Shown here one piece after another: positions 12,116-35,522 of a DNA stretch of 64,000 nt. Origin of the DNA: Psammoneis japonica (Eukaryota); contig QPGO01000261.1 of NCBI GenBank assembly GCA_008632985.1, positions 1 to 64,000 on the forward strand, in the 5' to 3' direction. The stretch's first letter is position 1, and each line of letters opens with the position of its first letter. Under the pieces are notes generated by a model. That model was not told the origin of the DNA and did not search any database. It was given only the letters and a program-made list of their open reading frames with translations. Made by a program: the position numbers and the translations under genes.

Positions 12116-13415
12116 ATCGATGAGAGGTGACAGGCATGGCAAGCAAGCAAGCTGCCAATGGGCATTCGATGCTTCTCATCACGCCTCCCGTCAAGGACAA
12201 CCATGCCTCCATTTCCATTCAATTGTCCGCATCTTGCTCCATCAGCCCACTTCTCCACCTTCATGTTCAGTGCTTCAACTTGATGTTCCATTGATCCATC
12301 CAGCACTGCCCATGCTCCTGAGGTTTCTTCTGCGTCCCATGCCTCCAGCCATTGGATGGTCACCCGGTTTCCTTTGTGGTCCAAGATTGAGATGTCTCCC
12401 AGGGCTTCCACAATCGTTTGATGATGCCATTGGTCATCACACCATTTGAAGGTTGCCAGGGACCAGCGACTCTTGCTTGGCACCAAGGCACCTCTTGCAG
12501 CCCAAATCTCCTTCCCAGTGACAGTCCACCATGTGTTGCGTGCCTTCTGCAACCATCTCGTGTGTTGATTCCAAGTCCACTGATGTGTGGGGCAGGTCGG
12601 TGTCATCAACAAAGGCACAGCAGACACAATGAAATGTGTTCTGTGTGATTGGTGTTTTCGCCTGTGTCCCAAAACCTTCTTCTTTCAGCGTGTTTGTCAC
12701 AGGGATGCTTGCCAACAGCCAAATCCCGGGTGCAGCTCCGTGTCCCTGGAACATCCCTTGCAATGGGATTTCTGGCACTCTGCAGGGCTCGTCCGAGACT
12801 CCGTGTGCTGTTCGTGCACAGTGCTCAATCTGGCTGAGAGTTGCCACTGTCATGAAAAGTTTGTCGTCCTCCTCATCTGCACACATCCTTCTCATGCACA
12901 GGCATGCAATTGAGTGTAAGATCCTGTCGCAACATGATTTCGCGTCCGCACTGGTGACAGCTCCTGGTCAGTGGACTTGTCCAAACACATCACCCGCAAG
13001 AACTTTGTTGAATGCACAGATGATTGCCCTTTGTCTCTTCCTGCTGCTGTGTGCTTCTCCCATGGCATTTGTCTGTGCACGTCCGCCTGTTGTGCAATGG
13101 CCCACCTGCAGCATTTGTTCATTTTGTTGCACCGGGCATTGAAGAGTGCAATGACATGCAGTTTCTTGACATGACTGGACTCCTGTTTCTTTGGAGTCTT
13201 TACATCCACTGCCTTTGTCCAGCATTTGGGTGCATGGCCATGCTTTCCTGGGATTGCGGACACGCAAGCATCAAATTCAGCTGCTGCAGGATGTTGGCAA
13301 CTGGCTTTGCAATCCAAAAAGGCTGGTCCAAAGGGGCCACTCGATGTGTGTGCCTTCATTTTTTCCCATCCGTTGACATGTTCTTCAGCAGTGCATTTCA
13401 CATTGAGCTTTGGCA

Positions 13416-13594
13416 GGGGGGGGGGGGGGGGGGNNNNNNNNNNNNNNNNNNNNNNNNNNNNNNNNNNNNNNNNNNNNNNNNNNNNNNNNNNNNNNNNNNN
13501 NNNNNNNNNNNNNNNNNNNNNNNNNNNNNNNNNNNNNNNNNNNNNNNNNNNNNNNNNNNNNNNNNNNNNNNNNNNNNNNNNNNNNNNNNNNNNN
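13416..13594. other. Poly-G run and assembly gap
   Basis: G18 at 13416-13433 followed by an N run at 13434-13594. Confidence 0.98.
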
Positions 13595-16500
13595 GGTCGC
13601 CGTTTTCTCAATGGCACCATCTTAAAGAGCCACAACAATCAACAGTGTGTCGTGTGTCGTCAACTCACACACGGTGGTGTTGACACATGAGAGTGCAACG
13701 GGCTCATTGTTGGCTCATGCGGTCAAAAAGTGATGGGCAAACAAATTTGACATTTCAGCTGTTTTTGCTGCAATCAATCAATGTCAAAGCACAGCAAGGC
13801 ATGTGCATGTGAAATGAATTGTGTGCTGTCGACACATGTCAGTGTCATGGCGAGATCATGGCTGTTGATGGAGACATTGCGTTTGCGGTTGCCATTGTCG
13901 TCGCGTTTCGACAAGTCGTGAAAAATTTTGAAACATCAAACATTCGTGCATGTGGGCATGTTTTTGCTCATGTGTTCTGCATGTTGAAGATTGCTGCATT
14001 CGCGGAGTCGTCACATTTTTCATGCGTGACAAGAACATCGCATGTCTTGATGGGAGAGCAAGCAGACCGAGTGTTGAGAGCACACTGTTCCTGGATGACC
14101 TGTCCTGCCATGCACCGGTCTGCACGCCATTGTCATTCTCGCATGTGTGCCCTCCTTTTCTTTGAATCTAGCCCAGATCCATCTTCCTGGTCCAGTTGGG
14201 TCACTTCCTTTTGAGACGAGGTCGTGGCTGAGTGTGCGCTGGACCAGTTGTCCCACCCCTCTGCATTGTCTTTTTCCTGATGTGGAGTGATGCGCGGTGT
14301 TGGTGGCGACCAAGGTGTGGGATCGACGAAGTGTGCACCAGCAATCATTCCATTGTTGATTTTTTGGGATCCGCTCAAAGTTCAAGTTTGCCTCAATGAT
14401 TCCCATGGAGTCCACCTTGCACTTTGTTGTCCATTGTTCAACTTCGTTGTGCTTGTCATGCTTTGTTTTTTCCACTGGGAGGCCTCCAATGTTGTGGAAA
14501 GCCAAACGGCAGGCACTCTGGATTTTGATGTCAATGGAATCTCCCCACCATTCATCTGAATGCTGGCTGTTGTTTTCCAAATTTACATCCTCCTCAGGTG
14601 GTCGCCGGCCATTCCGCTGAGGATGATGTGGTCAAGGGATCTCCTCCAGTGCCCTCGGCCATGGCACTGGTGTTGTCATCCACCATTGACTCTCCTTCTG
14701 GTGTCTTTGGTGTGGCCAGATTATCTGCATCCTCTTCCATCCCTGGGCAAGCTTGCAGCTTGGCAAGTTCCACTTCAACCCTTTCCCCAGCTTGGCGTGG
14801 GTGGAGGGTGTGGTGGCCAGGGAAGCTCCGTCATGATGCGTTTCTGACTGATTGGCTTCTGCTGCATCCATTCCCTGAAAGTCCACTGACTTCTCCTCTG
14901 TTTTGGAGCATGTCATGTCGCCATCCTTGTTGCGGGCCATTTCAACTGAGCTGACGTCATCCGTGTTTTCCAGACATGCTGCCACTTGCTCCATTGCAGT
15001 CTTCACCTGTTTGACATTTCCCTTCTTCGGTTTTTTGTTTTGTTTGGATGATTCCCGCTTTTGGTGCTCCTGCTGCTCAGTGCTGATGTTGGACTGCCAG
15101 CTGTCTTTGATGCTCCACAGATCATCTTCAACAATCTCTGGGAGTTTCTCGTTGTCTTTGGAAGTTGTTGTGCCTGCATCTGGATCGTAGACTGCATCTT
15201 TGTAGATGGCAACACCAGCTGCTTTGAACCATGATGCCGCTTTTGGTCCAAGAAAGTGCAGCACCTCTGGAGCAAGGTCATTGATGGTCTGCATTGCTTC
15301 AACATGCACTTTCCTTGGAAAGGTTGTTGCGTGTTTGTTCGGCCGATTCCATTTGCAGCCCACGTGATGAAAGAGAGGGATCATCTTGTGTTTGTCAGAG
15401 GCAGGGTTGGCAACTCTTTTCCTCATTAGATGGCATTGGAGGTTGATTGGTTTCCCTTTTGGGTCCTTGATGGTGCTGTCAAGATCTTTGAACAGAGCAC
15501 AATCCACCGCAATGATTGCCTGCTCTGTGAAGCAGTGCTGGCATTGAGCAAGTTCTGTGACATTCTTCTTTGCATTGTCTGGGGCGCAGTGGAGTGCTTG
15601 GGAGGAGAAGTGTGGAACGAAGCACAGCATTGAGCCCAACATCTTCTTCCTTGCTCCTGCCCTCCAGATCCTCTCAGCTTGGATTCTTGCTTTGCATGCT
15701 TGACGGATCTCTGCATCAATGTGCAATGCCATGGGGTTCTTTTTTGGGTCGCCTCGATCAAATTTTGGACGTTTGCCGTCTGCCCCACATGTGATTCTCC
15801 ACTGCAGTCCCAGGTCTTGTGAATTCTGGATGCCCAGGCAGCACCTGACATTGTTGTGGAGAGTGACCTCTGTTGCAGTTTTGCTGCTGCAACAGAGCCA
15901 TCCTGTGCACTCAGCATGCATTGCTTGACAAGGAACAGGGTTCTGAGCAACAGAAAACTTTCCACATTCGATGTCCTCCATTGTTCTGTGCAGTTTTGAT
16001 CTGAACTCAGCCAGGCAAAATTTCGGTTCACCTTCAACTGCAAAGCAAATCAAGCAGCACATCACATGTTCTTGATTTCACTCATGGGTTGCAACGTCCC
16101 ACCTCCAAGAAGGAACTGAAGAGCTCCCTTTCTTGTGCCTTTCCTTCTGGAATGTCTTCTAGAGAGGTCCAATCACCGCAGGTCTCGCAAAGATCTGGGT
16201 CCCATGGACCAATGTGTGCATTGTCTCCTAAAACATTTTGAATGATTTCAAGAGCCTGTTCCAGCATTTTTGCTGTTTCCTTGAAGGGCTTGTCTGTCGA
16301 AGGGGCAGCCAACCACGCGTTGCATCTGATGTTCCAACAAGTTGCAGACGACTCTTCTTCTTCATCATCATCTTCTTCAGACTCTTCCATCGCTGATGCA
16401 TCTTGACAGTTGGTGCTCCTCAGATTTTCTGTTGGACCATCTTGTCCTTCTTCCATGCTGGTGTCTTCTTGTGGACCATCTGTTTCCGTTTCTTCCTCCT

Positions 16501-17059
16501 CATTTTCCTGAGTTTTTTCCTGACCCGATTCTTCTTGATCAGTTTGTTCCGGCGTGAAAGAAACATCCTGGACCATCAAATGCGTTGTCGCAGGTGTTCT
16601 CTTCTTCTTCGTTGTCTTCGCCATCTTCTGTCATGTGATCCTGACTGGTGATCTGTAAGTCTTTATCGTGCTTGTTCTTGCTTCGCGTACATTGACCATG
16701 AACCGGGGGCGTGACTATGAATGCTGTCTGGTCTCGTTTTCCTTGGTACGTGAATTTTGTGTAGAATCAGTACCAGAGTTACTGCCTCTATGTTGAAATG
16801 AGAAACGTTGAAGATTCTTTCGCTCAAAAGCTAGCTCTCTAGAGAGAGAGCGAGAGGACCATGTGTCGATCGGTCGATCGATTACTTTAGCGTTGCTACG
16901 CATCCGCACTGCAGCGCCGGCGTAACAGGTTAGCCACACAATGTGAACTCTACGAAAGCTTTCCAAGCTCGAGTCAATACCTGAATCTCTTTCACCCCGG
17001 GTTCTCTTCGACGTACTGTACTGCATTAGCTTGTCAGTACAGTGAATCCTAATCTGATC

Positions 17060-17340
17060 GGTCTGGCCACAGTATCTCCACCAAATAATATGCCGGTCCT
17101 CCGTCCGAGACTTCCACCAATTGATCTCCTTTACAGCTGTGGTGCGAATTTATTTTATTGACTTTCAGCATTATTATCCAAAGATGTGGCAGCACAGCAA
17201 ATTTCCTGTCACCGACGCATCATAAAGGTAATAAGACCCATAACACCGTAATCACACTCTCGAAAACAAGAGGACAGCAAAGCCAAGGCATTCGAAGAGC
17301 TATGTGTAACTTTCATTTTCACTAGCTCTGCGGTGCTATC
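17060..17340 (-). pseudogene. Degenerate second TIR half-domain downstream of ROCO copy 2
   Basis: Minus strand reads SSNALALLSSCFRECDYGVMGLITFMMRR*, resembling CTHAVIILSPNFRESRYCVMELNTFMMRR of the upstream TIR; out of frame with it. Confidence 0.65.
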
Positions 17341-17347
17341 CTTATCA

Positions 17348-20300
17348 CTAGAAGCGACTAGACCCAGTATTTTGATCATGAGCATATTCTACCAAACTTT
17401 CGGGAATGGGAGGAGTAGTTTCGTCTAGACGATGCTCCTCAACGTATCGCACCAGCTCATCTTCCAATGATAATTCATCCCATTCTGGCTTGTCGCGATC
17501 ACATTTGAGACGTTCAATGAGGTCTGGCCACAATCTTCCGACTAGATACCTTGCGGGATCATCTATCCGAGCCGGAAAGTAGATGATTCTCTTTAGAGCT
17601 GGAGCAAACCTGTCGACTTCGTCGAGCTTCCAAAGATACGGGAATACCTTCAAGTTTTTCTGCTCCCGTCGCATCATGAAAGTGTTGAGCTCCATGACAC
17701 AGTAGCGACTCTCTCGAAAGTTGGGTGACAATATAATCACGGCATGGGTACACGTGTGCGCAGCTTCGAGTAGAGAACGCATCTGGTCTTCCCCAGTTTT
17801 CAAGCTTCCATCATCGATGAAGGTCTTGACGCCCAATCTTTTGGTGAGAAACCAACGCGTAGGACGAGCAATAGTCTCTTTGGTATCACCTCTATGCGAC
17901 AGAAACACATACGGATCACCACCAAGGTTGACCTGCCAAACACTGCTAGGATCCAGAACACCTTCCATTGACAACTCTCCCACATCTGTCTCGATACCAT
18001 CCAACCGTGCTTGCGTGTACAAGCTGGAAACGTTTCGTCCGTCAACTACAATCTGCGAGTGGGTGCCGTGGTGGCCGATTTCTTGAGCTTGAGAAAAGTG
18101 AGCAAGACGAGCCATCATTTGATTCAGCAGCGCCTTGTGCCTCGATGCCTTTCCGATCTTGTTGTAGCTGGCTTCTCCGTTCGTACAAACCACCGGAAAA
18201 TTAACATTTCTTCTGCGCTTGCGACAAAAATGCGAACTCATTCTCCTCTCTGGATTTGTCACTTTCGACCACCCAAATAACTGGGAATCTTGTCCTCTGC
18301 CAGCACTAACGCAGCAATGACATGCTAGCACCTCGTCATACTGCAAACCTGCGAAGTGATCCGTCACTTCGTCACGAACAAAGCTAACGGCACCGTTCAA
18401 CAGGCCCCAAGTTTCGTCCCTAAGCACGTCGTCCTTCGGACAGCGTACAGAAAACGACAAGTACGGCTCGCGGCCGACTATCTCCACAAGCTCGGACCGG
18501 ATCCATCGATCCTTCTCGTCAACCACAATCGCGCCATTCAGATATGTGCATACACAATTCCCATATGCATGGGTTGCAGCAGCAAAGTGTGCAGTAAGAC
18601 TCGAAGGGCAGCCCCTGTACATTATCAAGCGCAAATCTCGCTGCTCTTGTCCGGCTGGTACTTGCTCCGGCCACATATCCTCCCAATCTGACGGTATTTC
18701 TTTCTTTAAACGGAAGAGAACCACGGGAATAACATCAGCTGTGACTCGGGAACTGGTGTTCGTAGAAGAGTTCGGATGAGGTGACGAAGCAAATATGACG
18801 TCCGATTCAAGAAGCATCTGCAGAATCATTTGGTAGTCTTCTCGATCAATATTGAACTCACGCCACAAAAAGGGAAGAATCAGTGCGTCCAGCTCTCCGT
18901 TATATGTCAAATCTTTCAGCCCCTCCATTAAATCTTGTCGTAGTCCAATTCTTTTACTCTCGCAATTCTCGACGAAACTCTCAACTTCCTCGCCAAACTC
19001 CGATGAGTCTATTTTTTCGAGTGTCAAAGTATGGTCTATGAGAGGTGTGATCAAGTCGGTTACAAAAGACGGTTGCAAATACGCCAGCCCAGCATCAACA
19101 AAAATACTGCCCCGGGCTTCAAGAAGTCCTAGTGCATCGTCAAACGTAGTGTTGTCAGCCAGGGGGGCGTGCAAGAAGCGGAATTGATCCCACAATGAAT
19201 TGAGCCTTTCAACTGAACAGTATGGTCCTTTGGCTGGTATCTCAATCTCGCCGTCTGTAGTCGTCTTCATGTTCCCAATCTCGCCCAACGGGATAGCATC
19301 ATCGGAACTTGCTGCAGAGAAAAGCTCTTCTTCATCGGCATCTGCACCGCACTGAAGAACAGCGCCAAAGAATTTCCACAGCTCCTGCCATGACTTTGGG
19401 ATTAGCGTACCGACACTTGATAACCTCGGCTCCGCATGATCCTGCGTATGCCTAAAGATGGTATTGCTCACCTCTTCCCTAGCGCATGCAATGGCACTTT
19501 CACTCGTTACGGATACTTCCAGGACATTGGTTAGGACCCGGAGCAGTGGCGGCTTCTTTCTTTCCGTCGATTCCTCAGGTATGACACGATCATGAAGAGC
19601 AACTTCCTCTCTTTCTCTATTCGCGGCGGCATCACGCCATTTTTGAAGCTGCCCTTGGACTTTATTCTGGAGCCATTGCACTCTTTTCTCGAGCCATTGC
19701 TTTCGTTCAACCTCGTCCAACTCGTCCGGCACAATATCAACCTTAGATAGGACAAGTTGCACCACGGCACCCGGTGCCCTTGCCTGTAAAAGCACAAGAA
19801 AGCGATGCACTACTTCTTCATAGAAATCGTCGTGTGCTTTGTCCGCCGCCACGACAAGTAAAAAGAGTGACAACGCTGTCATGAATGGTGCCTGCCCCAC
19901 AGCATAGTCTTGCTGACCGCCGCAGTCATAGACCATTAGCGTAATTGGATCATCGCTGTATTCATCGGGTGCGTCTATCTGCACAGGTTCCACATCAAGA
20001 TAGATGGTCCGTTCCTCCTCACCCTCTGTGCGCGCCGGGAAACGACCGGCAATGGCATTGCGCAGGCTCGTCTTTCCTGCTTCCCCGTCCCCCACGAGCA
20101 CCGCCTTGAGCTGTCTGGATGTGGTTGCCCCCCCTTTATCCACGGCATCAAAGTAACGAGCAATCGCCTCGAGGCCCTGTTCCGCAATCTCGGACGGGGG
20201 TTCCAACAGTGGATCTCCAACCACATAAAACTCGCAGTTTCCCTCAAGCTTGACAAAGGAGCGTGGAAGTCTTGAAATTAGATTGAAACTCAGATCAAGC

Positions 20301-21106
20301 TTCCGGAGATTCGACGCCAATGTCTGGTTCGTCTCCAGTGCTTTGCCAATGGCCGCGGCAACCCCGTCTCCAATGGGATTGGCGAAGAGAGAAAGCTCCG
20401 TCAATGTTTTATTTCTTTCTAACGCTTTTCCAATGGCCGCGGCACCCTTGCGCTCAATGGAATTGCCGTCGAGAAAAAGCCCCGTCAATGTTTTGTTCGT
20501 TTCTAGCGCTTTTAAAATAGCTACGGCACCCTCGTCTCGAATGGCATTGTTTGTAAGATGAAGCACCGTCAATGTTATATTCATTTCTAGCGCTTTTCCA
20601 ACAGCCGCAGCACCCTCATGTCCGATGGAATTGGCACCAAGATAAAGCACCGTCAATGTTGTGTTCGTTTCCAGTGCTTTTCCAATGGCCACGGCACCTT
20701 TGGCTCCAATGGAATTTTCGCCGAGATGAAGCCACGTCAATGTCGTGTTCCTTTTCAGCGCTTTTCCAATGGCCGCGGCACCCTCGACTCCAATGGAATT
20801 GTTGGAGAGATAAAGCACCGTCAACGTTGAATTCGTTTCTAGCGCTTTTCCAATGGCCGAAGCACCCTCGTCTCCAATGTAATTGTATCCAAGATTAAGC
20901 TCTGTCAATGCAGTGTTCATTTCTAGTGTTTTTCCAATGGCCACGGCATTCTCATCTCCAATGTAATTCGTGTAGAAACTAAGCTCCGTCACTGTTGGAT
21001 CATTCTCTAGGAAGAGACGAATGCGCTCTTGAGCATGTGGCGACAAATGAATGAACCAATCCGCTGACATGTCAATGCTGCTGGAACTTGACGAAGACTG
21101 TTGCAT
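17348..21106 (-). CDS. LRR-ROC-COR-TIR ROCO-family receptor-like protein, copy 2 (intact, ~1252 aa)
   Basis: Eight 28-aa LRRs; ROC (LVGDGEAGKTS, RTIYLDV, YDCGGQQDY, LSKVD); COR region with a CxxC; C-terminal TIR (YVFLSHRG, TFIDD, AVIILSPNFRESRYCVMEL, with the Glu expected at the TIR catalytic position). Confidence 0.93.
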   Translation of the reverse strand: MQQSSSSSSSIDMSADWFIHLSPHAQERIRLFLENDPTVTELSFYTNYIGDENAVAIGKTLEMNTALTELNLGYNYIGDEGASAIGKALETNSTLTVLYLSNNSIGVEGAAAIGKALKRNTTLTWLHLGENSIGAKGAVAIGKALETNTTLTVLYLGANSIGHEGAAAVGKALEMNITLTVLHLTNNAIRDEGAVAILKALETNKTLTGLFLDGNSIERKGAAAIGKALERNKTLTELSLFANPIGDGVAAAIGKALETNQTLASNLRKLDLSFNLISRLPRSFVKLEGNCEFYVVGDPLLEPPSEIAEQGLEAIARYFDAVDKGGATTSRQLKAVLVGDGEAGKTSLRNAIAGRFPARTEGEEERTIYLDVEPVQIDAPDEYSDDPITLMVYDCGGQQDYAVGQAPFMTALSLFLLVVAADKAHDDFYEEVVHRFLVLLQARAPGAVVQLVLSKVDIVPDELDEVERKQWLEKRVQWLQNKVQGQLQKWRDAAANREREEVALHDRVIPEESTERKKPPLLRVLTNVLEVSVTSESAIACAREEVSNTIFRHTQDHAEPRLSSVGTLIPKSWQELWKFFGAVLQCGADADEEELFSAASSDDAIPLGEIGNMKTTTDGEIEIPAKGPYCSVERLNSLWDQFRFLHAPLADNTTFDDALGLLEARGSIFVDAGLAYLQPSFVTDLITPLIDHTLTLEKIDSSEFGEEVESFVENCESKRIGLRQDLMEGLKDLTYNGELDALILPFLWREFNIDREDYQMILQMLLESDVIFASSPHPNSSTNTSSRVTADVIPVVLFRLKKEIPSDWEDMWPEQVPAGQEQRDLRLIMYRGCPSSLTAHFAAATHAYGNCVCTYLNGAIVVDEKDRWIRSELVEIVGREPYLSFSVRCPKDDVLRDETWGLLNGAVSFVRDEVTDHFAGLQYDEVLACHCCVSAGRGQDSQLFGWSKVTNPERRMSSHFCRKRRRNVNFPVVCTNGEASYNKIGKASRHKALLNQMMARLAHFSQAQEIGHHGTHSQIVVDGRNVSSLYTQARLDGIETDVGELSMEGVLDPSSVWQVNLGGDPYVFLSHRGDTKETIARPTRWFLTKRLGVKTFIDDGSLKTGEDQMRSLLEAAHTCTHAVIILSPNFRESRYCVMELNTFMMRREQKNLKVFPYLWKLDEVDRFAPALKRIIYFPARIDDPARYLVGRLWPDLIERLKCDRDKPEWDELSLEDELVRYVEEHRLDETTPPIPESLVEYAHDQNTGSSRF

Positions 21107-21743
21107 CTTTTTGAAGACGAGACTTGTTTCCAAGCAATCCAACAATCCCAGGCAAGCAGCGCCAGTATCTTTTTCGTCTCACTCGATTTTGTGCAAGGAT
21201 GAGGAGTCCGTCACATTTGCTGGCTGCGTTGCCTCTCTGCGATGAAACCACTCGAATGGAGCAAATGTGTTGGTGTATCTGACGAGAAGAGACATTATCA
21301 AGGATGGGAATACTGTGTTGTATGAGGGATCATGGATAATGGCTCTTGCAATGGTGTCATGATAATGGCGAACGATGATTCTCCGTAGACGAGATGCCAA
21401 ATAATGCCGGAGGAGAGAACGGAAGAAGAATCATCATCGTCGTGCGTCAGTGGCGATTTGAGCACGGATTGCTTCTAATTCCTTTCTTTCAAGTAAAATT
21501 AGTACCACATTGTACGTAAAAAGGAATGAAAAGAAGGAATCTTGGGCGAGTGTATCTTTTGATCGTCATCACCCAATCAGCAAATTAATGTCACCGCCGC
21601 ACTCACTCGTCCATTCGTCCATTCATCCCGCCTCCATCCTCCATCACCCACCACGGCCACGTCGTTGTTGAAAAGGCCATTGTGGTTGCATGACTGTTGC
21701 TCTGTTCCAGCCAACATCACACACACACAAAACAACAAACAAA

Positions 21744-22774
21744 ATGGGAAAAAAGACCTTGGGTGCGAGTCTCAAGGGCAAAAAGCCCACCCATCGAGGC
21801 ACTTCAAAGACTGCCATCACGTCCAATCCGGGTCGGATCGGGGACAAACTGAAACGTTCGGAAATGTGCGGAAAGTGTCTCATGGAAAAGAAGCATCAAA
21901 AGAACATGGCTCATCGTCAACGTGCCAAGGAAGCCGAGGCACTCGGAGAAGAAGCTCCAGAAAAGCCCGCGCCGCAAACTCTGGAAAGCACGCGTGAGTT
22001 GGAGCCAACGTTGGCAAAACCAAACGATGAAGAAGTTGCCACCGACCAAGCTGAAGGTGAGTTTGCACCGCACTTTAACGATCAAGTGCAGCCCAAAATT
22101 CTCATCACCACATGACCACGTCCGTCGAAGCAGCTCTTTTGTTTTGTTGCAGACTTGCAAAGATTCTTTCGGCAGGCGCGCTTTTGTCCTCGCAAATTCT
22201 TCACAGTCAAGGAAATTTGTGGCTTTGCTGCCAATCGCGGCTTTTCCCATTTGACTGCATTGAGTGAAAAATCCAAGGCATGCAACGGCATGACCACATT
22301 TCGCGTTTGCGTGTTTGTGAAGGACACAACGTGACGGCCGGCCCCACGGCCTTTTTCAAGGTGAGCAACGTCATTTCGTCGACTGACATTCCCAACCACG
22401 GCTCCGCCACAAGTCACATTCCCGAATTGGTTTTGAGTGGATTTGGAACATGACTTGGACATCGTGTTGGGCATTTTTTGGGAAGTTTGTTTCCGCACAA
22501 TGCTCAGTTTCAGGGACGGCAGGTGGCGACCTTTCACAATCAGCGGGACTTCATCTTTGTGCGGCATCATCGACATGTCTTTGAGCCATCCAAGAATGTC
22601 AGCAAAGAGACAAAGCAACCTAAGACCAAGGCAAGATTGCAAGAACTGGGGCCTTGATTTGCTCTCAAGCTCCGGTGGATTCAGGAGGGTGCTTTTGACG
22701 CCATGTTTGGTGAATGTGAATGGATTCACAAGCGCAAAGAGATGGACATGATGCGCAGAAAGTTTCATTTGCAA
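21744..22774 (+). pseudogene. RPF1: RPF1 pseudogene, hypermutated
   Basis: Collinear with 2203-3228. CGA-to-TGA stops at 22113 and 22451, indels near 22300-22330, stop TAA changed to CAA, and Tyr codons changed to Cys or His. Confidence 0.95.
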
Positions 22775-24065
22775 TGAGATTTTGGCAGCACAGATGATGA
22801 TTGTCAACAATCTGTTGTTTGTAAGTTGTTTTTTTTTGTCCAGTGCTGCAACAAAGGATGCGGACACGGACTGGAAATGACCACCAGTTCGGTCAATGTG
22901 GCGCGCATCTTTGACATGCCGCTGTTTCGTCTTGCACTGTTTCATTGACAACTTGTGTGCGGCACTCTTCTGCCTTCCTCACTCTTGTCCACAAAACAGA
23001 ATGCCAGTGTGGCCCAGCCCACATCAGTGTGGTTTGGGGTCTCAATTCATGGTTGTTCTGTCAATCTGTTCGATGAATTCAACCAGCTGTGCTCTCCAAC
23101 CTTGCGGAATGCTGTCTTGCACACAGCCAGAGAGCACCGGTGCTTGACTTGATGGCAGCAAGATTCAAAAGTGGCTGCAGAGTTGCAAATCAAAATGCTG
23201 CAGAGCAAGACATGATGGATTGTTGGGAGTGCTAAAAACACACAACAGTGGCTTGCCTTTTGTTCGAAATGTCTTTCATTTGAAATGCTCAGCCAATCTC
23301 GCCATTGGTGAGCACTCCAGTTGCAACCTGCCTGCAAACACAAGTGAGAGTGAGCATGGCAAAAACCAGGCACTGGCAACAATCACCAAGAATGAACACA
23401 ACATCAATGTGGCACTCCAAACCAAAAGAGCTTGCTTGGAAGGGCGCCACGCAACAAGCGCAGAGGCAGGAGCAGAAGGGTGCATCATTTTGCTCTTGCA
23501 CTGAAAAACAGAACAGCAAGAGCAAATCTTCTTTCTGTTTGGCCCTTTCCTCTTTTCCAGAATGCTGCTCTCATTGTGGCCAAGCAACAAGTGGAAGCAG
23601 GTGCCAAGGTTGCAGGGTCAGCGGCCTGTTGCAGCTCTTGGCTTGGCACCAGCAGCAGCAGCAGCACAGCAAGCTGCGCCATCAAAACACAAAGGGTGCA
23701 GAGATGATGACCATGGGCTCCAGCTTTGCAAGGCACAAGAGGAGCCACAAAGGTGCTGGTGGCATGGAGCCTGAGCTCTGAGAAACTCACAGAAGCTGCT
23801 GTCATCTCTGGGGGCAAGCACGCAAGTTGGCGCATTTGTGAGCTGTGCATCTGATGTGGTGAAATGCAAACTAACTGCATCTGTGAAGTGGAAGCAAGAG
23901 CTCAGCTCCCTGATGTGGAAAAAGTGTTGTGGTCCAAGGCCAAATGATTGTGCAATTCTGGGCCATTCACAAGCAAAAGGTGCAGAGCACCCCAGTCTGC
24001 TGGTCAGGCGTGTGAAACATGCTGGTCTGGGCAGAGCTCCATGCAGCTGTGAGACCCAGGCCTCA
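22775..24065 (+). repeat. Diverged copy of the sequence downstream of RPF1 copy 1 (~3230-4400)
   Basis: Shared blocks such as GGTGCATCATTTTGCTCTTGCACTGAAAAACAGA at ~3872 and ~23479. Confidence 0.85.
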
Positions 24066-27000
24066 AGCAACTTGAAGCTGGCATCACAGGTGCGCTCCGG
24101 ACAAGCACACAGACCATCACCACGGCAACAACATGGAAAACTTGTCAAAAAACCACCAGAGCTGATGACGACATTGGCGTGGCAGACAAGGCATCTAAAC
24201 ATCAGCCGTTTTTTGGACCATTGCAACAGAAGCTCTGTCAGACCCACATCAGCACACCATTGCAATCATCCATTTGGAGACGCACATTTTGGTGAGAAAT
24301 GTTGAAACATGCCATTGCACTCCTTCATAACACCATGTTGCATGCAGATGATGCACCAACTTGCCATTTGCTGGATTTTTGGCACCCACTGAGTTAAAGT
24401 CTGAGTTTGTAAAAAGGCAAGCAAATTGAAAATCAAAATGGTGTCGTCAGCATGTCCAAGGCTCGCCACTTGTTGTCTCACTCAACTTTCTTGCCAGAGC
24501 AGCCAATTCTCGCTGTCTTTCCCAGCATGAGCACATTGACAAATCCAACATCATCATCACACAGTCAAGCCCATTTGAGTGGTCAATGGCATTGACCAGA
24601 TGAACATTTTTGAAGACTCTGACAAAGCAGCTGCGGTGCACTCAGCCAAGCATTTTTGAGCGGAAGAGAGTCAGGCGGATGGGAGTGAAAATGAAGAATG
24701 AAGTTGGCACATGGTTCAAGAAAAAAGCAGTGATGAAATGTTGACAAAACACTCTGATGCTGCTGTCACTCCACAGAATGATGAACAACAGCAAACAGAG
24801 CTCCTCCCTGGCTTGTGTGCACTCTAGATTGGTTGCAAAGACACAAACATCAAATCTGAAAATGGAAAAGTGTGGCTTGCAAATCAGTGCTCACGGATTG
24901 CTTCACCCATTTGCAGCATGAAACAGGGCAGACATGGTTGTCACGAGGTCAAAGACAAATTGGAAAGCAGAGCATTGCCATGAAATTGGTTTGTGATGAT
25001 GTTGTCATCCAGCCTTGGTGTCAAGAATGGGTCAATGTCAATTTCACCTCATCGCAGTGCAAGTCACGTGCATTGAATCCCATGGGACCCACTTGACTTG
25101 ACATTTTTGGTGGAACTGGCTAGACTTTGACCCCAGCCAGAGCCACAAAACACAGAAGACATGAGCATTGTTAGTCTCCCACCCTTTGGAACATTGTCTT
25201 GCAAGAACAAAACAGGCATGCATTGCTCATGGTGTCAGGCATTTGAAAATGGAGCTGACATTTTGCGGAGCACCTTTGTCACACGTGAAAGTGCAAGGGA
25301 CAATTTTCAGTCATGGCTCTGCAGCCAACGCAACCCTCTGCTTGCGACCCCAAAAGTCATCGGGAGCTTTGCACCAGCACGACATCAGTCAGCTGGAAAT
25401 GCACCTTGGCAAAAAATGGGGGGTTTTGTGATCACATGTGGAAGCATGGCATTGGGGCCCACAGCTGCCAGGCATCTGTTGTGCATTGTGAGTTTGAAGT
25501 TTGTGTTGACAACTTCTGGGCACCCCGTGTCTGCTGCAAGCAGCCAAGGCAAGTGTGACAAGCAGCACAGGAAGCCCCACAGGATTCTCTTTTGGCACAC
25601 CAACTTGCTGGTTCAACGCTCACTCCAAAGAGTTGCCGGCACTGCATTTGGTGCCCAACAATGTCAACACTCTGCTTGCAGTCAATTGATTGCTGCAAAC
25701 CTGCACAACAAGTGGCAGAGGAAGCAGCAGACCCAACAGCTGAGGTGAAAGATGTGGTTGTGGAAGAGACAACAAGAGCCGCTCACAGGCCCTCTGACCC
25801 AAAAAATGAAGCCAATGCCAAGAGCCACTTGCAGCCTGAGAAGAAGTTCCGTCCTTCATCACTGAACAGCAACACTCACAATGCAACATGCAAAGCTGTC
25901 AAAGAGAAGATCATCCATCAGCACATGCAGAATGTTGCAGATGGCATGATCTCAGAGCTGATGTCTGCAAACACTGTCAACCACACTCTTTTAAGTTGGG
26001 CAAAGCATTGAGGCTGTCAAGGAGCAAACTCAAACTGCTGCACTCTGCCTGCCATGCAGATGACACCCAGGTTGATGCGCGAGCACTCAATGATCAAGAA
26101 CACTGCCGCAGCAAACACGCGCCCCCACAGAAGGAAGGAATCTCTGATGTGCACAGTCCACACAAAGTTGTGCAATGAAAAACCTTGACCATGACAAGCA
26201 CTTCAAGTTCAGCACCTTCAGCTCATTTGTCCTGTCTCACATTGATTCAACCCAATGAACACCATGGGCACATGTGCAGGCTTTGAAGCAGAGTTGCAAC
26301 AACGGACATGAAGAAGTGCTCACGGCCACTCCAGAAAACAATGGTGCGTTTGAGTTGTGACACACAGCCAGCCCATTTCTGTGGCTGCTCAACAACACAC
26401 AATGATGCACATGACATCAGAGCTCCTTGTTGTGATGGTTTTTCATTGTTTTCATGGATGATTGAGCAATTGCTCAAACTTGCGCACCACAAGTTTGAGC
26501 AGTCTTCTGAGTTTGAGCAAATGGGCAATGCAAATTTGAGCAATTTCTCAAACTTTTGATGGCAAAAGCAAAGACCAGAACTCTCAATCATGGCCGTCAA
26601 GTCTTGCTTGGTGTGGGCTTCACTGCAACTCAACACACAGTTTGGCGCCAAAGCACAGCTTTCCGCCCCAGCTCCATGCTTCCACGTGCAAAAATTGACC
26701 CCCTGTTTTTAACCAAATGCCCACCTTGATTGACCAACAGCACACAGATGTGAAGTTCATGATGCTTTTGGGGTCCCAGAATGGGGGTGAATGTCAGTTG
26801 CTGGCCAATCACTGAAAATCGTCCCCCCACACTTTCACGTGCAACAAAGGTGCTCCATGAAAAGTCACCTCCATTTTGAAATGCCAGATGCCATGAACAG
26901 TGCATGCCTGTTGCATCCTTGCGCAAGACATTGGGTTAAAGAGTGGCTGTGAGACCAATGATGCTCACATGTTGAGCATTTTGTGGCTCCAGCGGGGGTC

Positions 27001-28400
27001 AAAGTCAAGCCAAAACTTCCAAAAAATTTGAGTTGAGAGTGGGTCCCACAGGATTCAATGCTTGTGACTTGGAGTGTGAGTTGACCCTTTCTCAACACTG
27101 AGACAGACAACAACAACATCACAAACCAATTTCATGGCAACACTCTGCTTTCTAATTTGTCTTTGACCTCATGACAACTGCACTTGACCTCTTGCAAGAA
27201 AGTTGAGTGACGCAACAAGTGACGAGCCTTGGATGCATTGACGACACCATTTTGATTTTCAACTTGCTTGCCTTTTTACAAAGTTGGAGCTCAACTCAGC
27301 AGGTGCTGGAAATCTGGTTGGTGGTGGGTGCATGAAGAATTGTCGTGCAACGTGCCATCACGACAAGCAAAAGGGTCCCACAGGATTCAATGCTCATGAC
27401 TCAGAGTGTGAGTCAACCCTTTCTCAACACCGAGACAGACAACAACATCATCACAAACCAATTTCATGGCAACACTCTGCTTTCCAATTTGTCTTTGACC
27501 TCGTGACAACTGCATTTGACCTCTTTCATGCCACAGACAGGCCAAGCAATCCATGAGCACTCATCTGCAAGCCACACTTTTCCATTTTCAGATTTGACGC
27601 TTGTGTCTTTGCAATCAATCTAGAGCACATGCAAGCCAGGGAGGAGCTCTGTTCACTGTTGTTTGTCATTCCACAGAATGACAGCTTCAGAACATTTTGT
27701 TGACATTGTTTGACTGCTTTTTTCTTGAACCACACACCAACTTCATTCTTCATTTTTGCTCCCATCTGCCCGACTCTCTCCCATTCAAGAACACTTGGCT
27801 GAGTGCATTTCAGCTGCTTTGTCAAAGTCTTGAATGAGATTTGTCTGGTCAACAACATTGCTCAAATGGGCATGATGACGTGACGATGACATGATGACAA
27901 CGTTGGATTTGTTGATGTGCTGATGCAATGAGAGTCGGCTGTGGCGGCAAGAAAGTTGAGTGAGACAACACCAAGTGGTGAGCCTTGGATGCATTGACAA
28001 CACCATTTGATTTTCAATTTACTTGCCTTTTTACAAACTTGGAGTTTAACTCAGCGGGTGCTGGAAATCCGGTTGGTGGTGGGTGCGTGAAGAATTGTCA
28101 TGTGACATGCCGTCACAACAAGCAAAAAGGCATGTTTCAAAAATTCTTGCTAAAATGCTTGTCTCCAACTGGACTTTTACAATGGTGCAACGTGTGGAGT
28201 CTGACAGAGCGACAGTTGCAAATGTCAAAAAATGATGATGGTTTAGACACTTGTTGAAGCAATGCAATTGTCGCCATTGTCGGTGAGAGATTGGATCAAT
28301 TTCCCCACGTTGTCACCACGGCGACAGTCTGCACACTCATCCAGAGCACACCTGCCATGCCAGTTTGGAGTTGCTCAAGGCCTGGGTCTCACAGCAGCTG
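24045..28400. repeat. Large diverged inverted repeat (arms ~24045-25460 and ~26660-28400; internal duplications in the right arm)
   Basis: For example, 24045 CAGCTGTGAGACCCAGGCC matches the reverse complement of ~28378-28400; 24780-24900 matches the reverse complement of 27545-27660; 25080-25460 matches the reverse complement of 26660-27060. Confidence 0.85.
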
Positions 28401-29894
28401 TTGATGCTCAATGATCACAAAGTGGTGCCTCATTTTCAGTGCACTCATTTTTCTCAAATGGGTGTTCAGCACCTCCATTGACACACACACATCAGCAATG
28501 CAGCTGTGACATTGAGTGGCTCAGGGTGGGATCACTGCACAGCAGACAGCTGTGTGGGCTGAAGAGACACTCTGCCTTCCCATCTTGCTCTGTCTGGCAA
28601 GGACTGACTGTGCACCATGGTCCATTTTCTGCAGCCGCACCCTGACATTGACCCGTCCAGGGCAGGTTTTCTCAACTGAGAAATGTGGCTTGCTGCAAAT
28701 GCCTCATTTCAATGTGATGCAACTGCGTTGTTGTGGGCTCTTCCAACAGGACTTCAATCTGGCACAACATGGCGGAGCAGCACAACTTTGCAAACATGCC
28801 AGGCATGTGAGTTGCACAGTGAATTTCTGCACCACATTGGGCAAGCCTTGAAAGGGCCTTTTCTTCAATGCATTTCACAATTGACAAAGCTTCAAAATCT
28901 GTTCATTCATCCAAGAGCAACACCAGAGCAGGAATCCTGCCATTGTCTGAGCTGCAGTCAAGAGCTGGCAAGATGCTGTTTTGAGACCAGCAAAAGCTTG
29001 AGGGGTGTTCACAACATGATGGCATCATCTGGTGCCATGTTGCAGATTGTGCCACAAACACCACTGCTTGTTGAACACATGTCAGCTGTCTTGCAGCACC
29101 ACCATGCAGTCTGACAATTTCTTTCAAAATTTTGTTAAGTGATCGCCGCAAATCAGTGCTCGCAGGTTTTGATCTGAATGAGTGGGTTTTCCTTCTTGAG
29201 CTCAAACTTGACCTGATGCAGGTGTCTCAGCTCTCACCACAAGGTTCATTGGGGCAGATTTGCCACTCAACAAAGCTCCAAGCAGGAGCATCATTTGGGC
29301 TTGAACACAGAGTGAAACACGCAGTGGATGGCAAACTCTTGCTTGGGTGCCGACAAAAAGAGGGTGCAGAAAAGAGTCAGAGGGCACAAGAGAGGGGGGA
29401 CACTTCATCAAGCTTTGCCAAAGCAGGTTGAAACTTGATGTTGTGGGGTGCCATTGCAATGAGTGCATCCGTCATGAGACAGCACAACCAGCCAAGAAAG
29501 AGGAGAAGCACTCTGAGAAATCGACTTGTCATTGTGAGTTGAAGTGACCCTTTCATGAACTTTGCTTGCAGTGCCTCCACATCATCACTTCCTCCTTCCT
29601 TGACTCTTCCAGAACATGTGAATGTTGCTCTCTTGAGAGTTGGTTAGAAGATCAACATCAACAATGACGACATTGCCACGACAGCACACAACAACACAAG
29701 AGAAAACTTTCACATGGCACGAATGCTGACATGCCACAGCTGCTGCTTGCTTCTGTGCAGGGCTTGTGCTGGCTTTCACCTGGACATGTGTTTTGGCATG
29801 CAGATCGATTTCTGGTGCACCTCACACTCTGTTGCGTGTCACTGTTGCATTGCACTGCTCTTCTTGATGCTGTTGTTCGCACACGGCATCCACC

Positions 29895-30150
29895 ATGGCC
29901 AGAGCACACAAGAAGACGGAGCTTGTCCCTGCATCAATGCATCTGACTTGGCTTCAGGACAGCATGCTGGAAGCATTGTGAGTCTTGTCAGGACAGTTGA
30001 ATCCTTTGACGGAAACACGATTCAATTGCGATGCTCCGACGGCGGCACGGCACTTGCCATTCCCGATGCCGCAGCTGACTTTGACATGCCAGCCAGAGCC
30101 AAGGTGGAGTTGATTGGTGCCACTCAAGCCAAGAGTGGACAGCTTTCCAA
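29895..30150 (+). pseudogene. RPA3: RPA3 (RPA14 ssDNA-binding subunit)-like relic
   Basis: DGACPCINA..GQHAGSIVSLVRTVESFDGNTIQLRCSDGG..KVELIG resembles the RPA14 OB fold once Cys/His are reverted (DGAYPRINA, GQYAG). The nearby ATG is out of frame. Confidence 0.6.
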
Positions 30151-31631
30151 GTTTCATTTTTGGCATGCCAGTGGGAATTCAATGTGTTTCTGCATGTGAC
30201 AGTTTCTCACACATGCGCACAAACATCATGAACTCTGCGAGCTCCAACACGAGAATGACACAAAGCACAAAGAGTTTGCAAGAGAGCAAACAGCATTGCC
30301 AACACACTGTGAACGTAAAGCAAAAATGCCAAAACATTGTTGTTGCATGACACACAGATGGTTGGTCTGTCGACAGACAAAACAAATTGCCTTCAAAGCT
30401 GGTCAGAAGCTTCGGTGGACTTTGCAGCTGCTTGCATGCAGTTGGGTCACAACAGAGGCCTGCGTCACCCACTTTGAATCATTCTCAAATGACAACCACA
30501 GCCAACTCCTCCACCAATGTTGCTGACACCTTCTCTGTCAAGTTGCCATTCAACTCAACAAATGCTCTCTGCAGCAGGAGAGCAAATGATGAGACTTCTG
30601 GCTCGTCCACCAAGATGACAACGTTGCTGACTGGACAACTCTCCAGCATTTTTATTTCAGTCACAGATTTGTCGTGTGACTGGTCAACATCCACAACCAC
30701 AAATCTTTTTGGAAGTGTCGCTTGTTTTGCACCCACAAAGCAGAGCCCTCTAAACTGCTGCTGCTGCATGGAGAAAAGGAGACAAAGCAGCCAGCCACAG
30801 TTCCTGGATGAGCAACCTTTTTTCAGAACAAGTCCTCCTTGGGACATCAGGCTAAACTCACTGTCATGCCACCAACCCCAGCTCTGCTGAGTCATCCACA
30901 CCAGTTGTGTTTGCCACAGTGCTACCAAAGCAACTTCCAATGGGGCCAACGTGTCATTTGCAGCTCTTGCATCCACAGAAACACATTCAGGGTGTGGGGC
31001 TGTGACCAGCATAAAATGCAATGTGATGCATGCAATGACATGTAAAAAACATTTTTGTGCTCCACACATGCGGAATGTCTCTTTTAACACATGATGACTG
31101 CATGTGACTCTTTGTGTAGAATTTCTGCCTGCCTGCGTGCTCAGGGAGAAATCACAAATGTTCAACGTAGAGTGTCTTTCTTTCAAGTAAAAAATGTTGT
31201 GGATGCAGATCAAAATTTTCTCTTCTTTCACTCGTGCATGCTGTCACAAAATGACAATCGGTGCTGCATCAATCATCTCTCGTCATGCATCTCCACAACC
31301 ACTGCACACCACACCCAGAGCCGTCCAACCATGTTTTGCAGACGACTTTGCATGACACATTGATGTGGTGCAAAAAGGTGACACAGGTGCATTCCAAGGA
31401 CAAGCTTTTGTGTTTTCTTGCACTGTTTCATTTTCATTGCTGTCTCACAGAACTTGCCATGCTCAATGTGCACGTGAAAAAGTGATGTGGGCTGCTGCTG
31501 CTGTTGTGAATGAAGTGCCACATCATTGATGTGGCAATGCATGGCAAAGCCAGTCACGAGCCACGCCTTCCTCTTTGTCATTCACTCCCCTTTGAAATGA
31601 CAACAAGCCATGCCTTCCCCTTCATCATCAC

Positions 31632-34600: not shown

Positions 34601-35522
34601 CCCATTGCGCAACCATGCCATCAACCATTCTTTGTGCGGTGGGGTCTTCCCAATGTGTGCCTCATTCTTTGAAAGATGCCAGCTCACATTTGTTGCAGCC
34701 CGACTTGACTTTTGTTTGGTGGGTGCGACTGAGATTCATTTGAGAACAAGTGGCTGCAAAACTGTCCTGTCCGCCACGTGAATGATGTTCATCAAACTTG
34801 TCTTGACAAAAAAGAGCTTTGAGTGCATTCCAACAGTTCTGATCACTCAATCTGACGCAATCCCTTTTTGTGGCAGCAGCACTCCAGTCTTCATCGTCAA
34901 CATCCATGCCAGCAATGCTGCTGGCTCCATTGTGAATGACAGTGTGAATGGGTGCTGCTGTGTCCCGAGCACTTTGCATGATTTGAGAGTGCAGATGCAA
35001 AGCAGTGCTGGGAGGAGCAGACAAGGACTGACGGGGTGGTGGGGGTGACGGTGGAACTGGGGAGTTGCTTTGAGATGGCAAAGGGGAGACCCCACTCATG
35101 CTTGAAACTGATCCCAAATCACTGGGTGAGGAACAATGCTGCTGATGCTGCATCGAGCGAAACAACTGCACTTGCTGTGGTGGCGGTGTTGAAAACCTGT
35201 GCTGACTCGACTGTTGATGATGTCCAATTCGAAAAGCTGGGAGAGATCCACTTGGTGAAGAGTGTCACTGCTGCTGCTGCTGCTGCACGGGAGCAAAAGT
35301 GTTTTGTGTCACCCCACTTCTTTGTTGCTGCTGCCACTGCCTGAATCCAGCATTGTTCCCTCCCCATCTAAACGGTGGCGGCTGCTGTGGCCAATTCAAA
35401 GATTGAGGTCGAGGCAAGTCATGAAAAGGCAGCGGCGATGGAATTTGCAAGCAACTGCTGTGAGAATTGCTGTGAGACCCATTGTCGGCACAGAAAGTGT
35501 TGTTTTGATTTGAAAATGCCAT
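31632..35522 (-). mobile_element. Decayed pogo/Tc5-like DDE transposase gene with a downstream SAP-like motif; element ends not found
   Basis: SDNGSQTKETL..LVIDGHGSGF..HPIFLPS at 33989-33498 matches the DDE_1 pattern. MKMVLRFKGLPTSGTQEELLKRLE at ~31830-31760 matches SAP. All pieces are on the same strand. Confidence 0.6.

Follow-up and report, generated by a model that had tools for sequence, protein, structure and literature searches.

TpA dinucleotides are converted to TpG and CpA in transposon-rich domains of a diatom contig

Which process has stripped one copy of a duplicated gene of nearly all its TA dinucleotides and left the sister copies untouched? The question is raised by a 64,000-nucleotide stretch of the diatom Psammoneis japonica (GenBank assembly GCA_008632985.1, contig QPGO01000261.1, positions 1 to 64,000; hereafter, the window), in which the gene for ribosome production factor 1 (RPF1) is present as an intact copy (RPF1-A), a pseudogene (RPF1-B), and a third copy that runs into the window end (RPF1-C). 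A first-pass annotation of this DNA had attributed the state of RPF1-B to a process separate from fungal repeat-induced point mutation (RIP) and from the decay of 5-methylcytosine (5mC), and our analysis supports such a process, which turns TpA into TpG or CpA in place and in certain regions only. The two RPF1 copies were aligned with MAFFT (2101-3420 against 21641-22965) and the fates of their dinucleotides were counted. The 25 TAs of the intact RPF1 coding sequence (CDS) had become 11 CA, 10 TG, 1 CG, and 2 TT in RPF1-B, with 1 TA kept; this tally is exactly that obtained earlier by manual alignment, and the examples given with it (ATGTACGGAAAGTAT to ATGTGCGGAAAGTGT, CCGTAC to CCGCAC, and the stop codon TAA to CAA) were all found. 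The sole surviving CDS TA sits in TTTAAC, and across the full 2153-3408 alignment only 1 of the 32 TAs of copy A was kept. By comparison with the loss of 24 of 25 TAs, CpG was kept at 48 of 78 sites (30 lost), and the other dinucleotides were 62-92% kept, the lowest values being those of AC, AT, and GT, which overlap TA sites. The bases of ancestral TAs, which make up 50 of the 1,023 CDS positions, accounted for 25 of the 111 CDS substitutions (Fisher p = 8e-13). With the strands pooled, A-to-G change affected 23 of 50 adenines after T versus 16 of 190 after A, 8 of 137 after C, and 9 of 149 after G (p = 6e-12), i.e., 46% versus 6-8% (33/476 pooled). The claimed enrichment at TA thus amounts to about 6- to 8-fold more A-to-G change per adenine after T, with saturation at TA itself. 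The AA dinucleotide was not elevated (AA to AG, 9/105 versus GA to GG, 6/84), and transversions were rare. The change is an A:T to G:C transition, from TA to TG or CA, that affects either strand about equally.

The polarity of these changes was established by aligning 30 outgroup RPF1 proteins to RPF1-A. At six of the codons that changed from TAY to TGY or CAY in RPF1-B (42, 45, 110, 148, 276, and 323), tyrosine was present in 29-30 of the 30 outgroups, and at codon 133 it was present in 9 of 30. The two codons changed from GTA to GCA correspond to valine in 30/30 and 19/30 outgroups, the codon changed from ATA to ACA to isoleucine in 22/30, and the three stops that arose by CGA to TGA to arginine in 30/30. 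On the basis of these residues, TA is the ancestral state, and RPF1-B is a pseudogene. The transposable elements (TEs) of the window have lost tyrosine in the same manner. The helicase frame of a Helitron remnant contains 0.3% tyrosine versus 2.3-4.5% in most of 58 homologues, and at 15 conserved-tyrosine columns it has seven cysteines, five histidines, one arginine, and two tyrosines; control columns were kept (Phe 17/20, Trp 7/8, Cys 6/7, and His 7/7). The integrase frame (42392-43699) of a Gypsy long terminal repeat (LTR) retrotransposon contains 0.5% tyrosine versus 2.4-6.7% in 30 homologues, with six cysteines and three histidines at nine conserved-tyrosine columns. The altered motifs that had been reported without their positions, GCCH (41554-41565), VNCCK (41980-41994), and HDIVIGR (40882-40902), all lie in plus-strand pol frames of this Gypsy element.

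Evidence that the changes were acquired at the present locus comes from the duplicated unit that carries RPF1. According to self-BLAST and Pfam, this unit, a minus-strand TIR-Roc-LRR gene with a diverging plus-strand RPF1, occurs three times in the window (copy A, ~1-4400; copy B, 16.9-24.0 kb; copy C, 59.1-64.0 kb) with repeat islands in between, and the three copies were aligned with one another. Upstream of position 21600, copy B keeps 28 of the 39 TAs common to A and C, and its own divergence there (9.5%) leads to an expected retention of ~82%; downstream of 21600, 1 of 6 remains. The final retained TA is found at 21586, and the earliest ancestral TA to have been converted at 21708, so the edge falls within an interval of ~120 bp. 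For copy A, normal TAs end at 3486 (~260 bp past the RPF1-A stop) and the edge falls between this position and 3846, and the edges at ~16655 and ~58230 are 0.7-1.3 kb past the 3' ends of TIR-Roc-LRR frames. The process is confined to blocks with edges of ~120 bp or less. Aligned over 211 bases, the two Gypsy LTRs show 12 differences, each a transition, which, expressed as dinucleotide sites, comprise three TA/TG, three CA/TG, two CpG-type, and one other. Because LTRs are identical at insertion, the differences at TA sites arose afterwards and independently in each copy. CA/TG discordant pairs also dominate the other repeat pairs in the same domain (e.g., 52 in an inverted pair at 24-28 kb), and such discordance requires an ancestral TA or CG that decayed separately in both copies. 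These sequence comparisons show that the process acted in place, once the copy or element was already duplicated or inserted where it now lies. It has affected DNA as different as a Helitron (a DNA transposon), the Gypsy retrotransposon, and a pseudogene of a host gene. Duplication by itself does not set it off, since the TIR-Roc-LRR copies, RPF1-A, and RPF1-C are all TA-normal. The LTR pair, with six TA-type sites versus one other, gives a rate of ~300-fold over background, a hand estimate that depends on a single background event and has a very wide interval, whereas RPF1-B, being saturated, provides only a lower bound of tens-fold. We conclude that TA loss exceeds background at least tens-fold and probably hundreds-fold, and that it outpaces the loss of CpG from this DNA several-fold.

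The extent of the affected DNA was defined by setting block edges from TA positions and calculating composition per block, with the observed/expected ratio (O/E) of TA also obtained per kilobase. The depleted blocks total 46,117 bp and contain 258 TAs versus 2,883 expected (O/E 0.09); by block, the O/E values are 0.03-0.16 for TA, 1.4-1.9 for TG and CA, and 0.23-0.94 for CpG. The four normal blocks (15,222 bp) contain 576 TAs versus 1,039 expected (O/E 0.55; individual blocks, 0.45-0.85). Per kilobase, the TA O/E drops to 0.02-0.24 over 6-9.5, 12-16.6, and 21.6-58.2 kb. The O/E values of AA, AT, and TT are 0.8-1.4, and the GC fraction is 0.48-0.54 in depleted versus 0.48-0.49 in normal DNA. 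The extent assigned by the first-pass annotation (~3.6-4.6, 5.7-16.6, and 21.6-58.3 kb) holds with refined block limits, and 9501-12000 is intermediate (Table 1). The largest domain, D4, contains the RPF1-B pseudogene, unclassified repeats, the Gypsy retrotransposon, and the Helitron. CpG O/E is 0.23-0.44 in the oldest blocks and 0.85-0.94 in the TA-depleted D4a and D4c subdivisions of D4, the latter of which (Gypsy) combines a TA O/E of 0.13 with a CpG O/E of 0.94. From normal to depleted DNA, TAA decreases from 17.6 to 4.8 and TAG from 15.4 to 3.6 per kb (both strands), and TGA goes from 35.6 to 45.8. The scarcity of TAA and TAG produces long meaningless open frames in depleted DNA: the window has 81 stop-free frames of at least 150 amino acids, the depleted DNA containing many overlapping ones of 150-640 amino acids on both strands, and 17 of the 29 window frames scanned had no Pfam match.

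Table 1. Positions of TA-depleted and TA-normal blocks, genes, and mobile elements in the window (LTR, long terminal repeat; TIR element, element with terminal inverted repeats; MITE, miniature inverted-repeat transposable element; ORF, open reading frame)
Feature	Position	Strand	Description
TA-normal block	1..3486	.	TA O/E 0.45; TIR-Roc-LRR copy A and RPF1-A with flanks
TIR-Roc-LRR copy A	frames 1-1702	minus	Cut by window start
RPF1-A	2203..3228	+	Intact ribosome production factor 1, 341 aa, Brix domain; 25 TA in CDS; TA-normal
Depleted block D1	3487..4625	.	2 TA vs 64 expected; CpG O/E 0.23; downstream of RPF1-A
TA-normal island	4626..5660	.	81 TA, O/E 0.85, within depleted DNA
TIR element	~4860-5686	.	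~827 bp; 34-bp near-perfect terminal inverted repeats; without long ORF; MITE-like
Depleted block D2	5661..9500	.	13 TA vs 224 expected; CpG O/E 0.38
Intermediate block	9501..12000	.	TA O/E 0.24; CpG O/E 0.89
Depleted block D3	12001..16655	.	14 TA vs 269 expected
TA-normal block	16656..21586	-	TA O/E 0.56; intact TIR-Roc-LRR ORF 17351-21178, 1,276 aa (copy B)
D4 left boundary	21587..21707	.	Divergent intergenic region, 40-160 bp upstream of RPF1-B start codon
Depleted domain D4	21587..58230	.	36.6 kb; TA O/E 0.03-0.16; TG/CA O/E 1.4-1.8; CpG O/E 0.35-0.94
RPF1-B pseudogene	21744..22774	+	24/25 ancestral TA lost; three CGA>TGA stops; small indels; stop TAA>CAA
Gypsy LTR retrotransposon	39139..43944	+	LTRs 39139-39379 and 43725-43944; pol frames 40039-43699 (RVT_1, Integrase_H2C2, rve)
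Helitron remnant	44464..50733	-	PIF1-type helicase frame 45000-46859; Helitron_like_N/DUF6570 frame 48823-50733
TA-normal block	58231..64000	.	TA O/E 0.54; TIR-Roc-LRR copy C and RPF1-C
TIR-Roc-LRR copy C	frames 59530-63159	minus	Pfam
RPF1-C	63659..64000	+	Third copy, ends at window end; visible 342 bp TA-normal

The substitutions are also present in sequencing reads. A public run (X1, 2019) contains 91% of the sampled words of 20001-30000, and contigs were built from its exact 31-letter words. Contigs with a word depth of 62-72 agree with the depleted DNA over pieces of 0.6-2.1 kb apart from 0-4 letters, and one at a depth of 89 covers 21265-21953, the boundary included, with 0 differences; the raw reads thus carry the substitutions recorded in the assembly. 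The recurrence of 31-letter words 60-90 times implies accurate reads, which argues that miscalling at a modified base did not generate the pattern. In the portion 16001-36000, single-copy contigs of the depleted domain had depths of 62-72 and the edge contigs (16001-16716 and 21265-21953) a depth of 89, a difference that could reflect allelic divergence or coverage bias. The rows with other letters were considered as possible ongoing mutation and rejected, as they are mostly variants of copies A and C, paralogues that cross-map at 90% likeness; among the 12 of 40 listed rows for which the context was examined, one was a TA-to-TG change (24329, A to G).

The same signature was found in environmental DNA, for which we analyzed the best 80 of 364 confirmed Helitron-helicase loci from JGI/ENA metagenomes. 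Four of the 80 (L004, L009, L050, and L080) have TA O/E values of 0.03, 0.09, 0.13, and 0.23 and TG/CA values of 1.49-1.87, and 75 remaining loci have TA O/E values of 0.35-0.98. Locus L008 (TA O/E 0.28) was not counted as a case, its composition being different (CpG 1.24, TG/CA 1.10). In L048 the TA O/E shifts from 0.44-0.86 to 0.00-0.09 inside one contig, and the database proteins P0134 and P0122 exhibit the same replacement of tyrosine by cysteine and histidine. In an environmental pair of loci, the 100 TAs of L013 correspond in L021 to 46 TG, 35 CA, 12 TA, and 7 other dinucleotides, and the surviving TAs of L021 are mainly in CTAG and TTAA, with the same context ranking as in the window. 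These metagenome traces suggest that the process is common in nature. The first 1,340 bp of L021:1-2709 contain 1 difference from L013/L064, after which the sequence continues as an 84%-identical version with nearly every TA converted. A fresh burst of mutation was rejected as the explanation, the mutated part having 101 other substitutions and 89 gap columns in 1,142 aligned bases; L021 is either an older paralogue, or a recombinant in which a young copy is fused to an old hypermutated one, or the product of assembly joining across a repeat. It was used for polarized context counts only, not for rate or edge sharpness.

The survival of TA differs with its flanking bases. The words ATAT, ATAC, and GTAT were absent from 44 kb of depleted DNA versus 132 occurrences in 14.7 kb of normal DNA. 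By a hand calculation scaled to the TA contexts of the gene blocks, survival was ~3% for ATAG/CTAT, 5% for ATAA/TTAT, 9% for GTAC, 20% for CTAC/GTAG, 26% for CTAG, 27% for GTAA/TTAC, 55% for CTAA/TTAG, and 65% for TTAA. Hence loss comes first where the adenine is followed by T or C (ATA/TAT and GTAC), and TTAA, CTAA/TTAG, and CTAG last longest. These values fit an additive model in which the rate for the adenine of each strand is set by its 3' neighbor in the order T >> C > G > A. Where the 3' neighbors of the two strands differ, the adenine with a 3' A is changed less often, the ratio in favor of the other strand being 9:3 in RPF1-B and 21:6 in the environmental pair (pooled 30:9, p = 0.001). 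The same model leads to the expectation that tyrosine is replaced by cysteine more often than by histidine, and the observed ratios are 7:5 for the Helitron, 6:3 for the Gypsy integrase, and 5:2 for RPF1-B. The strands of RPF1-B are otherwise equally affected (11 CA versus 10 TG). In a comparison aimed at one-strand clustering, as expected of a processive deaminase working on single strands, runs of changes on one strand numbered 8 versus 13.3 ± 2.4 expected in RPF1-B (p = 0.022) and 36 versus 40.8 ± 4.4 expected in the environmental pair (p = 0.17).

We consider it probable that these patterns record a real and heritable conversion of TpA to TpG/CpA, acting in place in silent, TE-rich domains, and that its agent is a DNA adenine deaminase that requires a 5' T. 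The affected domains are rich in transposons, gene-free, and mostly CpG-decayed, and they would correspond to transcriptionally silent heterochromatin. Each hit removes its own target, so that a site is changed once, and the end state is nearly TA-free DNA with no tyrosine codons, scarce TAA and TAG stops, and an excess of TG and CA. The edge at RPF1-B would then mark the point where silencing from the adjoining TE island ends, at the promoter held in common with the active TIR-Roc-LRR gene; RPF1-B probably went silent and was then engulfed from the neighboring island up to this shared promoter. The agent would be an enzyme, most likely a polynucleotide adenine deaminase in need of a 5' T, whose inosine product is copied as G. 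In the tRNA substrates of TadA and ADAT2, A34 is deaminated after an invariant U33. Our preference for a deaminase derives from this U33-A34 geometry together with the ADAT2-like enzyme proposed for a similar mutation process in the alga Bigelowiella natans, as described in the main text of a preprint (Mettrop et al., bioRxiv 10.64898/2026.01.13.699255). The effect would be an irreversible inactivation of mobile or foreign DNA, RIP-like in outcome, with the opposite transition, and not triggered by duplication alone. No deaminase domain was detected among the 29 frames of this window scanned with Pfam.

Several points weigh against this interpretation. Since TpA is self-complementary, adenine and thymine are not separable by sequence as the base acted on. 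The silence of the domains is deduced by proxy, from TE content, CpG decay, pseudogenization, and edges at the flanks of intact genes. The depletion of TA in D4c at a CpG O/E of 0.94 indicates that the link to CpG methylation is loose. The TIR element at 4860-5686, which we read as a young insertion, is TA-normal inside depleted DNA and misfits a model in which the whole domain is always acted on, implying that the process is slow relative to the age of the insertion, or episodic, as the preprint describes for lines of B. natans, or not active over the whole domain. The gene-block baseline of the survival values is an assumption, and X1 is probably the sample of the assembly itself and so not an independent individual.

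The alternative that survives best, although we think it unlikely, is that the modified base is thymine. A TET/JBP-type oxygenase, or some other enzyme that modifies thymine, would mark the T of TpA in silent chromatin (e.g., as 5-hydroxymethyluracil or 5-formyluracil), mispairing with G would give T-to-C change, and the mutations would be a by-product of an epigenetic mark, much as CpG decay is of 5mC. All of the counts fit T-to-C change equally well, given the self-complementarity of TpA, and the parallel CpG decay in the same blocks suits a mutagenic mark. 5-Formyluracil mispairs with G, and the 5-hydroxymethyluracil of dinoflagellates is reportedly enriched at TpA and TpC. Against this possibility, the full-text literature matches listed for 5-hydroxymethyluracil and diatoms all concern dinoflagellates, as judged by their titles and abstracts, and a review, in its available portion, places the base in dinoflagellates only and with a random distribution. 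Of the candidates named by the first-pass annotation, adenine deamination and thymine modification thus remain and polymerase eta is disfavored. Error-prone repair synthesis of that type in heterochromatin would produce A-to-G change at WA (W being A or T), as happens during the A:T phase of somatic hypermutation of immunoglobulin genes. TA is the hotter WA motif for polymerase eta, and repair of deaminated 5mC in methylated repeats could recruit patch synthesis; however, A-to-G change reached 8.4% after A versus 46% after T, AA to AG was no higher than GA to GG or background, transversions are rare, TA loss is strong in D4c without CpG decay, and every hypermutation event described in the main text of the B. 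natans preprint (10.64898/2026.01.13.699255) is at TpA, which together make this explanation very improbable. We attach similarly little weight to an artefact or a non-mutational cause, such as miscalling of modified bases, assembly chimeras, selection against TA, or GC-biased gene conversion. Conversions of TA and CG to TG/CA resemble the miscalls made at modified motifs by some long-read chemistries, and the read runs derive from one sample, but the exact-word contigs at depths of 60-90 reproduce the sequence and cross the boundary, and metagenome assemblies of unrelated origin, as well as proteins P0134 and P0122, carry the signature too. Selection cannot favor replacement of tyrosine by cysteine or histidine at conserved positions of dead genes, and under biased gene conversion AA, AT, and TT (O/E 0.8-1.4) would not have been spared and GC would have changed. 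Editing before integration, in which TE RNA or cDNA is hyperedited from A to inosine by an ADAR-like enzyme and then inserted, would agree with the 5' U favored by ADAR-type enzymes (according to the main text of 10.64898/2026.01.13.699255) and with the retrotransposons among the affected sequences, but it is scarcely credible given that RPF1-B is collinear with the untouched upstream flank of a segmental duplication, that a Helitron, which lacks an RNA intermediate, is equally affected, that the LTRs of one Gypsy element diverged at TA sites after insertion, that both strands are changed (11 CA versus 10 TG), and that AA is not elevated.

The remaining features of the window concern its genes and the less depleted blocks. 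RPF1-A has homologues of up to 85% identity, PF04427 being present in all of those listed, and the named relatives among the 120 listed are all diatoms (Ditylum, Thalassiosira oceanica, Fistulifera, Nitzschia, and Chaetoceros; 67-74% identity). RPF1-C equals RPF1-A for ~93 codons and then carries one base pair more than A and B around codon 104, so that it may be a young pseudogene or contain an assembly indel. The TIR-Roc(GTPase)-LRR copies are 78-93% identical, with an architecture like that of innate immunity proteins and a single open frame in copy B only; their LRR part includes a tandem array with an 84-bp period and a length that varies by copy. The segments 1624-2347 and 63078-63803 of copies A and C, which include the shared promoter and the RPF1 5' end, are 99-100% identical over ~720 bp between flanks of 79-94%, a near-identity that points to recent gene conversion between units that lie 61 kb apart in this sequence. 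The 235 bp to the left of the TIR element (4626-4860) are likewise TA-rich and AT-rich. A 904-amino acid open frame on the minus strand (9380-12091), with no Pfam match, lies in the intermediate block; this frame could represent an unclassified element of younger age or a gene undergoing mutation. Block D3 contains a scaffold gap of 161 N at 13434-13594.

As far as our searches show, targeted A:T to G:C hypermutation of nuclear DNA is known from a single 2026 preprint on a rhizarian alga. To this the window adds the same signature at saturation in a diatom; it extends the targets from viral insertions to ordinary transposons and a silenced copy of a host gene; and it provides constraints on the enzyme, namely the lack of strand bias, the hierarchy of 3' neighbors, edges of no more than ~120 bp, and independence from CpG decay. 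If enzymatic, the process would be a second, independently evolved mutational genome defense in eukaryotes and a possible source of natural DNA adenine deaminases. There are also practical consequences for annotation: in TA-free repeats without TAA and TAG, gene finders call long false ORFs, the replacement of tyrosine by cysteine or histidine blunts homology searches for diatom TEs, and, without masking of TA and CpG sites, ages derived from LTR divergence come out far too high.

Comparison with known systems clarifies where the diatom process belongs. Ascomycete RIP resembles it in that transitions at specific dinucleotides introduce many missense and nonsense mutations into mobile DNA and duplicated genes, with sharp edges and irreversibly. 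RIP, however, changes C to T mainly at CpA and creates TpA, whereas the diatom process destroys TpA by A-to-G and T-to-C change, and RIP is set off by duplication and strikes each of the two copies, whereas here the TIR-Roc-LRR copies and RPF1-A and RPF1-C are untouched. Fungal RIP was therefore rejected on direction (TA being ancestral and at an O/E of 0.03-0.16) and on the duplication trigger, and no role for a cytosine-methyltransferase-like RID can be inferred for the diatom process. Deamination of 5mC at CpG affects the same blocks, likewise yields TG and CA, is regional, and erases its own target, but it concerns another dinucleotide and the opposite transition; it operates alongside as a separate process (RPF1-B has lost 30 of 78 CpG) but cannot remove TA. 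Editing by ADAR, APOBEC, and ADAT2 shares the use of context-dependent transitions against mobile or foreign nucleic acids, and both ADAR and the tRNA adenosine deaminases prefer a 5' U. ADAR, a metazoan enzyme, acts on double-stranded RNA and also accepts a 5' A; APOBEC and AID produce C-to-T change, unlike the A-to-G and T-to-C change without strand asymmetry observed here. ADAR-type hyperediting fixed by reverse transcription is contradicted by the Helitron, the collinear pseudogene, and the divergence of the LTRs after insertion.

The closest match is B. natans. In its mutation-accumulation lines, according to the main text of the preprint, 231 of 302 nuclear mutations fell in two integrated viral regions, and 230 of these 231 were A-to-G or T-to-C changes, all at TpA, at a rate of ~6e-7 per site per generation, which is ~1000-fold that of the rest of the genome, the mutations appearing in only some lines; the authors propose an ADAT2-like adenine deaminase and cite edits made to DNA by ADAT2 in amphioxus and in Trypanosoma (10.64898/2026.01.13.699255). 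That main text is silent on diatoms and stramenopiles, on coordination between strands, and on any flanking bases outside TpA itself. The novelty implied by the first-pass annotation consequently stands in part: a full-text literature search returned no report of TpA hypermutation in diatoms, and a Phaeodactylum mutation-accumulation study (PMC6604790) gives CG, CC, and TG as mutable contexts with a GC-to-AT bias and, in its available portion, makes no mention of TpA, but the same TpA-only hypermutation is described in the main text of the B. natans preprint. The diatom DNA differs from that of the chlorarachniophyte in several respects. The host is a stramenopile rather than a rhizarian; the targets are transposons and a duplicated host gene rather than viral insertions; depletion is near saturation (TA O/E 0.03-0.16 over 46 kb) compared with 0.45 for the giant-virus region in the preprint; CpG decay co-occurs, and the flanking hierarchy and sharp edges described here are absent from the preprint's main text; and the window offers a historical record only, whereas the B. 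natans events arose de novo. The likenesses are more specific. In both algae, as far as the preprint's main text describes its case, A-to-G and T-to-C changes occur at TpA only, with TpG or CpA as the product depending on the strand (in the RPF1 CDS, 21 of 25 TAs became TG or CA with 1 further double hit, and in the environmental pair 81 of 100 did so), and the footprint is a depletion of TpA with enrichment of CpA and TpG; the B. natans clusters include reverse-transcriptase and DDE genes. In both, the changes are confined to discrete non-host regions, silent in B. natans and apparently silent here. The diatom case is thus best filed as a further instance of B. natans-type TpA hypermutation. 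We suggest, tentatively and as something that falls short of an even chance, that diatoms and chlorarachniophytes share an enzymatic DNA-editing defense in which a natural DNA adenine deaminase restricted to a 5' T acts on silent chromatin. Were this so, the defense would permanently disarm transposons, integrated viruses, and silenced gene copies by wiping out every TpA and, along with it, tyrosine codons, TAA and TAG stops, and TATA-type signals; it would constitute a widespread RIP-like system of the stramenopile-alveolate-rhizarian (SAR) lineage that works through the opposite transition, and its enzyme would amount to an adenine base editor of natural origin.

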